From positions 128,001 through 192,000 of the forward strand of contig CAWJCY010000012.1 in the NCBI GenBank assembly GCA_963841565.1: a stretch of DNA of 64,000 bases, in the 5' to 3' direction. Below are positions 18,332-49,924 of this stretch, one piece after another. Source of the DNA: an uncultured Nitrososphaerales archaeon (GTDB lineage: Archaea; Thermoproteota; Nitrososphaeria; Nitrososphaerales; Nitrososphaeraceae). Numbering within the stretch: position 1 is the first letter of the stretch; the number at the start of each line of letters is the position of its first letter. Made by a program: the position numbers and the translations under genes. The notes beneath the pieces were generated by a model. That model saw only the letters and a program-made list of their open reading frames with translations, was not told the origin of the DNA and searched no databases.

Positions 18332-19934
18332 ATGAATGACAGCTTATCAACAGCGGACCTTAGATGTACTATTCAATTACAAGAAGCGGGTTTCAATTTT
18401 TCTAAGCTGCACAGAAATTTACCTCCCCCATCATTAATTGAAGTCTGCTATTCATAGGCGCGAAGGAGAACTCTCGACAACTGGGGCTCTTTCCGTCAGA
18501 ACTGGCAAGTTTACTGGCCGATCGCCGGATGACCGATATATTGTGGATGATGACTTGACACATGATTCAGTTGATTGGGGAAAAATAAATCACCCATTAT
18601 CCCCTGAGAAATTTGATCGAATTTTCAATAGAATGAAAAAATCTTTAGAAGGAAAGGAAGCCTTTATCTTCGATGGATACATTGGAGCAGAGAAGGAGAG
18701 CAGGCTTTCGATAAGGACAATAACAGACAATGCATGGCACAATCTCTTTGCGATGCAAATTTTCATACGCCCAATCCCATCAGAAATTCTAAGTCATAAT
18801 CCATCATTCACTATATTGTCTATAATTGATTTCCAAGCTTGCCCAGAAGTAGACGGGACAAAAAGTGAGACTTTCATCATTCTCAATCTCACGAAGCGCC
18901 TTGTATTGATTGGCTCAACGTCCTATGCAGGAGAAATAAAAAAATCAATGTTTTCCGTAATGAATTATCTGCTTCCTCTGAAAGGTATTTTTCCTATGCA
19001 TTGCTCCGCGAACGTAGGTAGTGATGGAAGGACAGCTCTTTTCTTTGGCTTATCAGGCACTGGAAAAACGACACTTTCTGCTGATCCTGATAGACGTCTC
19101 ATTGGAGACGATGAACACGGATGGTCAAAGAAAGGCATCTTCAACTTTGAAGGTGGTTGTTACGCAAAATGTATAAATTTACAAAGATCAAAGGAACCAC
19201 AAATTTGGAATGCAATAAGGTTTGGTTCGGTTATGGAGAACGTTATACTTAACCGATGCCGTGAACCTGATTTTGACGACGAGTCGCTAACAGAAAACAC
19301 TCGGGTTGCTTACCCGATTGAATTCATTCCAAATGCCGTTTTACCAAGTATAGGAAACCATCCTGATGTCATTATTTTCCTCACAGCAGATGCGTTCGGA
19401 GTACTCCCTCCGATTGGAAGATTGTCAAAGGTACACGCTATGTATCACTTTATGTCTGGTTATACTAGTAAGTTGGCCGGCACAGAGAGGGGCATCACTG
19501 AACCACAAGAAACTTTTTCTCATTGCTTTGGTGCACCGTTCATGATGTTGAAGCCAAGAGAGTACGCGGACATGCTTGGCGAAAGAATTACCGAGCACAA
19601 TTCGAAGGTTTATTTGATAAACACGGGGTGGGTAGGGGGACCATACGGGGTTGGGCGTAGGATGAACCTGCAACACACTAGATCCATGGTGAAAGCGGCA
19701 GTCAATGGTGATTTGGAAAAAGTTTCTTATAAACGAAACGAAATATTCAATGTGGAGATTCCAATGTCATGTCCGGGAGTCCCAGATTATATCCTTGATC
19801 CTATTAATACATGGTCCGACAAGCAAAAGTATTTGGAATCTGCTAAAAGACTCGCTTCCCTGTTTGCCAAAAACTTCCAGAAATTTGGCAATATGCCGAT
19901 AGATATCATGAATGCAGGTCCAAGAGCACAGTAA
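18332..19934 (+). CDS. pckA: ATP-dependent phosphoenolpyruvate carboxykinase; one extra base near 18443
   Basis: TGKFTGRSP, FFGLSGTGKTTLS, LIGDDEHGW, FNFEGGCYAK. Upstream frame from ATG 18332 (..KLHRNLPPPSLIE) joins the ORF after a 1-nt correction. Confidence 0.95.
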
Positions 19935-19942
19935 ATGAAGAG

Positions 19943-20072
19943 TAGCCCGGAGCAGATTCGAACTGCTGTCCTCAGGTTTCTTTTCTTGTAGATCCAGAGC
20001 CTGAAATCCCTAGCCCTCAAGTAAGTTTGGCCACTAGATTCGGCACACGTTTATGACGTGCTCGACCGGGCT
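19943..20072 (-). tRNA. tRNA-Gln(CUG) with three introns (10/11: 20039-20062; 21/22: 20010-20026; 37/38: 19978-19993)
   Basis: Removing 24+17+16 nt gives a 73-nt cloverleaf AGCCCGGTCGTCTAGTGGCCAAGGATTTCAGGCTCTGGACCTGAGGACAGCAGTTCGAATCTGCTCCGGGCTA (A1-U72, typical of archaeal Gln). Each junction fits bulge-helix-bulge geometry. TATA-like TTTATTAA upstream at ~20087-20094. Confidence 0.92.
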
Positions 20073-20222
20073 TCCGAGCTGTAAGGATTAATAAACAAGG
20101 ACCAATATTTGACTGTAACGCTCGCGAGTAATTGAATCCATGGCCTTAATCGTAAGTCGTCATTTACAGTGTAAAGCAAATTTTCAAGAATTGCAATACT
20201 AAATAGTTTCGAAAATGCTGTT

Positions 20223-20834
20223 CTATATCTTTTTTTCAAGTAAGTAATTCCTCTTCTGATATAACCAATAGGTAATTAGGACAAGCAACGCGGCGAGAAA
20301 AACGCTGCTCAGTAGTGTGCTCGGATTCTCATACGGCATGCACTTATATTCACCAGCATAGCACCCGGCAAGAAAGAATAAGCAATTCCAAACCGAGTGA
20401 GATACTACTGCAAACCAACCTTTACCAGAAACCCACACTCGAAAACTAAAAAAAAATGAAGGGATTACAAATAACCAATTGATATATGCAAGGCTCAAAA
20501 TGGATAAGTCTTCGGTATTAATGAGATGGAGAAAAATCCAAACCAATCCTCCGATTAGTGCAGCATTTCCATTTGCTAAACCGTACAAAGGTATACCAAA
20601 AAATAATGACTCTTCAATTGGGCCAGCCAATACTACAGAATCAAAATATCGTGGAATATTGGGCTCGACGTAACCTGGAATAGTCGTTTGTATCAAAAAT
20701 GTACCAACAAGGGCAACAATAAGACCTAAGGAATGATAAAACCCAAACATTAATAACAAATATGGGATCGATGTTCGCTGAAATTTTGATAGCCATCGTG
20801 ATGGATTCAAGTCGTTTACAAATTGGCCTAGCAT
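20223..20834 (-). CDS. CPBP/CAAX-family intramembrane protease-like protein
   Basis: Multi-TM; GPIEESLFFG (EExxF), WIFLH, HSVWN motifs. Confidence 0.7.
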   Translation of the reverse strand: MLGQFVNDLNPSRWLSKFQRTSIPYLLLMFGFYHSLGLIVALVGTFLIQTTIPGYVEPNIPRYFDSVVLAGPIEESLFFGIPLYGLANGNAALIGGLVWIFLHLINTEDLSILSLAYINWLFVIPSFFFSFRVWVSGKGWFAVVSHSVWNCLFFLAGCYAGEYKCMPYENPSTLLSSVFLAALLVLITYWLYQKRNYLLEKKI

Positions 20835-49835: not shown

Positions 49836-49924
49836 CGGGCCCGGAGGGCTTCGATCCCTCGACTTCCGGCTTTCTTCACTAGGAATAGAAGGCAGGCGCT
49901 CTATCCAAGCTGAGCTACGAGCCC
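49836..49924 (-). tRNA. tRNA-Arg(UCU) with 14-nt intron at 37/38
   Basis: GGGCTCG/CGGGCCC acceptor stem; anticodon loop CTTCTA-[TTCCTAGTGAAGAA]-A with CTTC/GAAG central helix; T arm GAGGG-ATCGAAG-CCCTC. Confidence 0.92.

Follow-up and report, generated by a model that had tools for sequence, protein, structure and literature searches.

We found that a tRNA-Gln(CUG) gene in the 64,000-nt stretch of DNA analysed here (the window) carries three introns with BHB motifs and is preceded by a short leader sequence complementary to the 3′ strand of its own acceptor stem. The conserved leader complement may act as a stand-in that leaves tRNA nucleotides 5-8 free, and the three introns together with such a stand-in form the joint explanation that fits the locus best, one that we hold with considerable confidence. 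The features, listed from the upstream end of the gene and all on the minus strand, are as follows.

20104..20111, minus strand: putative archaeal TATA element, the A/T-rich box CAAAUAUU, conserved in the alignment and located 23 nt upstream of the leader complement.
20074..20080, minus strand: leader complement AGCUCGG, separated from +1 by a single A, with seven pairs (one of them G.U) to nucleotides 66-72 of the 3′ acceptor strand.
19943..20072, minus strand: tRNA-Gln(CUG) gene, 130 nt, four exons and three introns, recognized by reading the sequence, by ARAGORN on the spliced product and from orthologs.
20063..20072, minus strand: exon 1, 10 nt, tRNA nucleotides 1-10 (5′ acceptor strand, nucleotides 8-9 and G10).
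20039..20062, minus strand: intron 1, 24 nt, position 10/11, pairing through its 3′ GCCG with tRNA nucleotides 5-8; it has a 6-bp inner hairpin and, without an outer helix, a relaxed BHB.
20027..20038, minus strand: exon 2, 12 nt, tRNA nucleotides 11-21 (5′ side of the D-stem and the D-loop).
20010..20026, minus strand: intron 2, 17 nt, position 21/22, with a central helix between G17-C20 and GGCU.
19994..20009, minus strand: exon 3, 16 nt, tRNA nucleotides 22-37, including the anticodon CUG.
19978..19993, minus strand: intron 3, 16 nt, canonical position 37/38, with central helix CUCU/AAAG and the anticodon stem as outer helix.
19943..19977, minus strand: exon 4, 35 nt, tRNA nucleotides 38-73 (3′ side of the anticodon stem, variable loop, T-arm, 3′ acceptor strand CCGGGCU and A73).

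Joining the exons of 10, 12, 16 and 35 nt gives a 73-nt cloverleaf with the acceptor stem AGCCCGG/CCGGGCU, a D-stem containing two G.U pairs, a variable loop of 4 nt, a T-arm with UUCGAAU and the discriminator A73. The features expected of a tRNA-Gln are present: CUG lies in a 7-nt anticodon loop of a standard cloverleaf, and the T-loop and the GG of the D-loop are conserved. ARAGORN recognized the in-silico spliced product as tRNA-Gln(ctg) of 73 nt, removal of the introns having restored a canonical cloverleaf, and a tRNA body with A1-U72 and A73 is common to this gene, the UUG paralog in the same genome and the orthologs. The first-pass annotation had proposed this four-exon, three-intron structure; every string, length and junction that it quoted is found on the minus strand at 20072-19943, and its exon and intron coordinates and BHB geometry are borne out by the sequence, by ARAGORN on the spliced product and by relatives. 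Judged by its sequence, the locus appears to be a functional tRNA-Gln(CUG) gene with three protein-spliced introns at 10/11, 21/22 and 37/38; its host is a soil ammonia-oxidising archaeon of the Nitrososphaeraceae (Thaumarchaeota/Nitrososphaerota).

Each pair of splice sites consists of two 3-nt bulges on opposite strands with a 4-bp helix between them, and each junction falls after the second nucleotide of the bulge. In intron 1, the central helix CGGU/GCCG is flanked by the bulges CG^A and AA^U (a caret marks the junction), and the inner 6-bp hairpin has the loop CAUAA. Intron 2 has the central helix GGCC/GGCU and the bulges AA^A and AG^G. Intron 3 has the bulges GG^A and AA^A, and three of its four central pairs form around a C.A mismatch, a detail that the first-pass annotation had not given; by sequence alone, a junction at 38/39 would yield an identical product. 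Beside the central helix, an inner helix h′ of six, three and three consecutive pairs is present in introns 1, 2 and 3, respectively. The outer helix h of a strict BHB is present for intron 3 only; none adjoins introns 1 and 2, which makes their motifs relaxed (HBh′-like). We considered an outer helix formed by nucleotides 1-4 or by the leader with nucleotides 12-15, and ruled it out for absence of complementarity. The three motifs occupy separate tRNA nucleotides (5-8, 17-20 and 32-35), and their coexistence in one precursor is possible. The 4-bp helix of intron 1 takes up nucleotides 5-7 of the acceptor stem as well as U8; because it uses nucleotides 5-8, it is mutually exclusive with the acceptor stem (pairs 5:68-7:66).

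We compared this gene with its relatives. The locus was matched in 55 of 61 related genomes (220/301 genomes sampled across the order), and 148 of the 151 Gln loci fetched could be parsed, giving 107 CUG and 41 UUG genes in what is a biased sample. Intron lengths ranged from 15 to 37 nt for intron 1, from 13 to 31 nt for intron 2 and from 13 to 53 nt for intron 3, and the introns varied in sequence yet kept their hairpins through two-sided changes, while the exons were nearly invariant; exon 1 was unchanged in 51 of 53 family-f1 CUG genes with intron 1. The same insertion sites in relatives, with invariant exons and variable introns, make a pattern that is beyond chance. Intron 1 is missing from 44 of the 107 CUG genes, and because exons 1 and 2 are contiguous there, the junction of intron 1 is fixed at 10/11. 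The genome's own tRNA-Gln(UUG), at G000:C12:203981-204075 on the plus strand (about 12 kb past the window end), has a single 22-nt intron at 10/11, is uninterrupted at both other sites and carries an exact AGCCCGG copy one nucleotide before its +1; ARAGORN misses it, and the Rfam match covers only model positions 9-63. The junctions of introns 2 and 3 follow from the cloverleaf, the BHB geometry and this uninterrupted UUG paralog. An intron at 10/11 had been described as rare, a view that does not hold in tRNA-Gln of this order, where it is common: within the biased sample, 63 of the 107 parsed CUG genes and 31 of the 41 parsed UUG genes carry it. All 105 genes measured carry both a D-arm intron and the 37/38 intron.

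The motifs themselves are maintained in these relatives. With pairing measured from the junctions, without alignment, the central helix of intron 1 had four of four pairs in 61 of 62 genes, with three of four in L013, and its inner helix comprised 2-11 bp of differing sequence across 62 relatives. The helix occurs as CGGU/GCCG, as CGGU/ACCG and, in family f15 with its flipped acceptor pair 6:67, as CCGU/GCGG. The central helix of intron 2 was fully paired in 104 of 105 genes, with the types GGCC/GGCU, GGUC/GACU (a compensatory type found in four genes) and others, and that of intron 3 had three of four pairs (pattern 1101) in 91 and four of four (1111) in 14 of 105 genes. We then used 51 representatives, one per genus and isoacceptor and leaving out the unpublished genome G013, and confined pair counts to the central helix of intron 1, as the MAFFT alignment A1 loses the register of the leader (which may lie anywhere between 0 and 13 nt from +1). 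The intron-1 helix was paired in 204 of 204 cells, compared with 7.8-73.5% when the partner was slid, and family f15 contributed one double compensatory swap from G-C to C-G (three sequences, one event). The proposal that intron 1 pairs with tRNA nucleotides 5-8 is thus confirmed. As a separate observation, the D-arm intron lies at 24/25, with central helix CAAG/CUUG, in nine of the 105 parsed genes (L034, L036, L043, L045, L048 and L079-L082, in families f4, f9 and f11) and at 21/22 in the other 96. A GGGCUAG-like stretch in both versions suggests a single intron that may have slid by three positions.

The unspliced gene escapes several programs. ARAGORN made no call on it, nor after removal of any single intron, and with introns 1 and 2 removed it mislabelled the gene as Pyl(cta) with a misplaced intron; over the whole window it reported a Thr gene only. 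At the gathering score, Rfam reported two other tRNAs in the window and missed this one. Under relaxed thresholds, the Rfam tRNA model RF00005 gave the unspliced DNA 18.8 bits, below the gathering score of 29, as expected from insertions outside the anticodon loop. The expectation that standard scans would miss the gene therefore holds only for the tools used here, ARAGORN and Rfam at its gathering score: according to the text of PMC8450103, tRNAscan-SE 2.0 has a BHB model, trained on non-canonical introns of Thaumarchaeota.

The same difficulty extends to other tRNA genes of this genome. Run on the whole assembly, ARAGORN left seven amino acids (Gln, Glu, Asn, Cys, His, Phe and Trp) without any tRNA, and a crude scan based on BHB removal recovered candidates for several of those missed, with competing solutions per gene. 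A large part of the tRNA set is either concealed by non-canonical introns or absent from this 88%-complete assembly. Applied to other long tRNA candidates, the crude scan found no other gene in the genome with an intron after nucleotide 10. At 49836-49924 of the window (minus strand) lies an 89-nt tRNA with an Rfam score of 42.5 bits, for which the ARAGORN label SeC(tca) with a 14-nt intron looks doubtful. A tRNA-Arg(CCU) gene at G000:C2:5832-5937 (plus strand) has a 31-nt intron after nucleotide 15, with the helix GCGC/GCGU, AGA as both bulges and a 7-bp inner helix. The longest tRNA candidate of the genome, 144 nt at G000:C12:217927-218070 (plus strand), on which ARAGORN and the BHB-removal scan disagree, is probably a multi-intron Leu or Ser gene.

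The assembly, G000, comprises 2.05 Mb in 13 contigs. We searched it for another Gln(CUG) gene, as the first-pass annotation had advised, and found none in the 2.05 Mb, which represent 88% completeness. The host encodes the enzymes that relaxed motifs call for, namely two PF01974 paralogs (tRNA-intron endonuclease catalytic domain, located at G000:C3:183152-183388 and G000:C7:35814-36068) and one RtcB ligase; we infer that the two paralogs form an (alpha-beta)2 enzyme. In the text of PMC4090602 and PMC4033280, relaxed motifs are assigned to hosts with heterotetrameric or epsilon-type endonucleases. The tRNA gene converges with a PEP carboxykinase (PEPCK) gene (18438-19934, plus strand) and lies 9 nt past its stop codon, and an Rce1-like membrane protease gene (20223-20834) lies upstream on the same strand as the tRNA gene. 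Named records with the same PEPCK are Nitrososphaeraceae/Nitrososphaerales. Among 80 named loci, a tRNA-Gln(CUG) gene was parsed beside PEPCK in 40, and 31 had no parsed gene; in total, the named loci gave 49 parsed genes, of which 37 carry intron 1 and 12 lack it. The convergent pair itself (window 18438-20072) is syntenic in the named Nitrososphaeraceae loci L155-L232 where the gene was parsed. A scan for sigma-70 promoters and terminators was set aside as inapplicable to archaea; from its spacing, CAAAUAUU may serve as the promoter, with transcription starting near the leader complement.

The leader complement is maintained among close relatives and accompanies the 10/11 intron across the order. 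The sequence AGCUCGG is kept in 12 of 13 same-genus genes, and the thirteenth has GGCCCGG, which retains the pairing. We measured the leader helix as contiguous length without alignment. A score of pairs out of seven with G.U allowed was dropped, given a shuffle background of about 5/7 that left the groups unseparated. The criterion was an uninterrupted leader helix of 6 bp or more lying no further than 11 nt from +1. In raw counts over related, non-independent genomes, 91 of 94 genes with the 10/11 intron had such a helix, as did 5 of 54 genes lacking the intron; G013, an unpublished genome, supplied one of the 94. Grouping by genus and isoacceptor gave 49 of 51 groups with the intron and 5 of 34 without, and in the named records a helix of 6 bp or more was present in 37 of 37 genes with the intron and 3 of 12 without. 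By this criterion, three of the 94 intron-bearing genes (for example, L025 and L123) had no clear leader complement. Intron-bearing and intron-less genes occur together inside families f1, f9, f10 and f13, and in family f15 the leader copy tracks the flipped 6:67 acceptor pair. By these counts, the leader complement is conserved in Gln genes with a 10/11 intron and largely limited to them.

Some intron-less genes of family f19 have a more distant copy. In its CUG genes without intron 1 (L035 and L076-L078), a copy AGCCCG(G) lies 18-23 nt upstream. In L035 and L078 the complementary GGGCU comes after this copy, so that the two make a hairpin within the leader. Family f19 also includes a UUG gene, L143, in which the 10/11 intron is present and the leader helix is 9 bp long. 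In the genome studied here, an intron-less tRNA-Thr(GGU) gene at G000:C1:120378-120451 (minus strand) has a 7-nt leader complement to its 3′ acceptor strand 15 nt upstream, the sole case of a distant leader complement among 35 other tRNA genes examined.

A mechanism can be proposed in which, before splicing, the leader stretch would take the place of the 5′ strand and pair with the 3′ acceptor strand, and this pairing would leave nucleotides 5-8 free for the intron-1 motif. A two-paralog endonuclease would cut after the second nucleotide of each bulge and RtcB would join the exons; once intron 1 was out, the true 5′ strand would displace the leader and RNase P could then trim it. An encoded stand-in acceptor strand of this kind, accompanying introns that invade the acceptor stem and often pairing also with A73 and the trailer or CCA, would keep the motif from being displaced and enforce splicing first, followed by acceptor-stem formation and RNase P trimming, and intron and stand-in would have been gained, kept and lost together across Nitrososphaerales. 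For this full account, belief and doubt are about evenly balanced. The first-pass annotation had also placed splicing before end-processing, an inferred order to which the conserved leader complement lends indirect support.

Predicted folding lends partial backing to the stand-in. Folded alone, the 130-nt gene kept the acceptor stem and did not form the intron-1 motif, and for all 27 representatives, folding in the absence of a leader gave the intron-1 helix a predicted probability of no more than 0.005. With its native 12-nt leader, the tRNA-Gln(CUG) gene reached a predicted probability of 0.65. When the leader was 9 or 12 nt long, the minimum-energy fold contained the leader:3′ strand helix together with all three motifs; with 16-30 nt, it reverted to the native acceptor stem, the two states lying about 0.5 kcal/mol apart. 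When the 27 representatives were folded with native leaders, the intron-1 helix had a predicted probability of 0.17 on average, and 13 of them exceeded the shuffled-leader mean. This gene and the families with 7-bp copies showed a clear predicted effect, which was weak in many family-f1 genera.

One possible alternative is that the gene and its introns are real and the leader complement is a functionless relic, left, for example, by a 5′-end duplication when the intron arose or by gene conversion from exon 1. The stretch does resemble exon 1 nucleotides 1-7. On this account the intron-1 motif would form simply because its transcription precedes that of the 3′ acceptor strand by about 100 nt, so that co-transcriptional folding could suffice without a helper; the inconsistent thermodynamic benefit (13 of 27 representatives) points the same way. 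Degenerate copies also persist in some intron-less genes: besides the five of 54 that carry the complement, weaker or more distant copies are found in families f12 and f19 and in part of one f1 genus. These remnants would also fit decay after intron loss. Against a relic, many families have retained the stretch even where the leader positions around it vary, and it decays where the intron is absent (5/54 as against 91/94). Its interior variants, counted by eye, comprise about eight C-to-U changes, which still pair with G, no G-to-A change and one C-to-A change. Moreover, the pairing extends into A73 in 27 of 50 groups and into the trailer in 19 of 50, positions outside exon 1, so that a mere copy of exon 1 is not a sufficient explanation. 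We consider a relic unlikely.

A second alternative grants that the leader:3′-end helix is real and assigns it to end processing or stability (the timing of RNase P or tRNase Z, or protection from exonucleases), with no help to the intron-1 motif. The reach of the pairing into A73 and the trailer would suit such a role, as would its extension, in several families, across a genomically encoded CCA. UUG genes including L123, L125, L126, L128, L129 and L141 (families f6, f9, f10 and f13) encode CCA immediately 3′ of A73; two of them, L126 and L141, have UGGU in the leader, which complements A73 and CCA to give 11-bp leader:3′-end helices. A general role at the tRNA ends, however, does not account for the tie to the 10/11 intron, which is seen even within single genomes: in 12 genomes with the intron in one of two Gln genes that share an acceptor stem, the leader helix of the intron-bearing gene was the longer in 11, with one tie. 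Nor does it account for the other tRNA genes of this genome, in which a 7-bp leader helix adjacent to +1 is found only in the two Gln genes among 37 tRNA genes examined and is absent from the remaining 35. This explanation seems to us less probable again than a relic.

Metatranscriptome contigs from four runs contained the unspliced gene in X3 and X4, the latter also with a relative's unspliced gene, and in X1 and X2 covered the flanks. Joined forms were absent from these contigs, a kind of data that hides a 73-nt modified tRNA, strand and ends and in which DNA carry-over is possible. The absence of spliced RNA there and of any call by standard scanners could be taken to mean a decaying pseudogene, a chance tRNA-like string or other splice junctions, a reading made very improbable by exons that stay nearly invariant across the order while introns drift with compensatory changes, by intron-less relatives that show the exact predicted exon 1-exon 2 junction and by the lack of another Gln(CUG) gene in the 2.05-Mb assembly.

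Multi-intron tRNA genes of the Thermoproteales were reportedly described by Sugahara et al. in 2008. According to the text of PMC4033280 and PMC4090602, up to three BHB introns per tRNA are found, mainly in Thermoproteales, which agrees with the first-pass statement that triple-intron tRNAs are best known from that group. Thaumarchaeota also have tRNA genes with multiple non-canonical introns, 107 non-canonical introns being described in the text of PMC8450103. Similar to the gene described here, the Thermoproteales genes have relaxed motifs and hosts with a two-subunit-type endonuclease, as far as those texts go; the host of this tRNA-Gln(CUG), by contrast, belongs to another phylum and is a mesophile. 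The Thermoproteales examples lie at 3/4, 20/21, 22/23, 25/26 and other positions, and 10/11 does not appear among them in the text of PMC4090602, its figure aside; we found no mention of a leader complement in PMC4033280 or PMC4090602. The Thaumarchaeota introns of tRNAscan-SE 2.0 come from the same phylum as this gene, and we found no mention of pairing between leader and 3′ acceptor strand in PMC8450103, supplementary tables aside. A further parallel, likened by description only, is the multi-intron tRNA-Gln(CUG) of Candidatus Caldiarchaeum subterraneum, the same isoacceptor in a related lineage that, in the text of PMC3082918, has a heterotetrameric endonuclease.

The split tRNAs of Nanoarchaeum equitans offer a different comparison, in that flanking non-tRNA sequence pairs to make an endonuclease substrate; there, as the texts of PMC4033280 and PMC4090602 have it, the leaders of two transcripts pair in trans and are cut off at the BHB, whereas the Gln leader would pair in cis with its own 3′ acceptor strand, outside the BHB. 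In the literature searched, supplementary files aside, we found no description of a leader standing in for a 5′ acceptor strand; none turned up in PMC4090602, PMC8450103, PMC3218864, PMC4033280, PMC3082918 or 10.64898/2026.10.13.758758. What is new here is the coupling of a leader complement to the 10/11 intron, a multi-intron tRNA in itself being already known in Thaumarchaeota.

These results show that tRNA genes of mesophilic ammonia-oxidising archaea can be interrupted as heavily as those of Thermoproteales. Without an archaeal BHB step, scanners leave the assembly's only CAG-decoding Gln tRNA unannotated. Because the intron is present and absent in close relatives, and even within one genome, the idea of a stand-in is directly testable, and named records with and without the 10/11 intron are available in Nitrosocosmicus and Nitrososphaera. 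If functional, the leader complement would explain simply, at the RNA level, how an intron persists despite competition between its splicing motif and the tRNA's most stable helix, and it would yield a rule, open to testing, on whether splicing or end maturation comes first in archaea.
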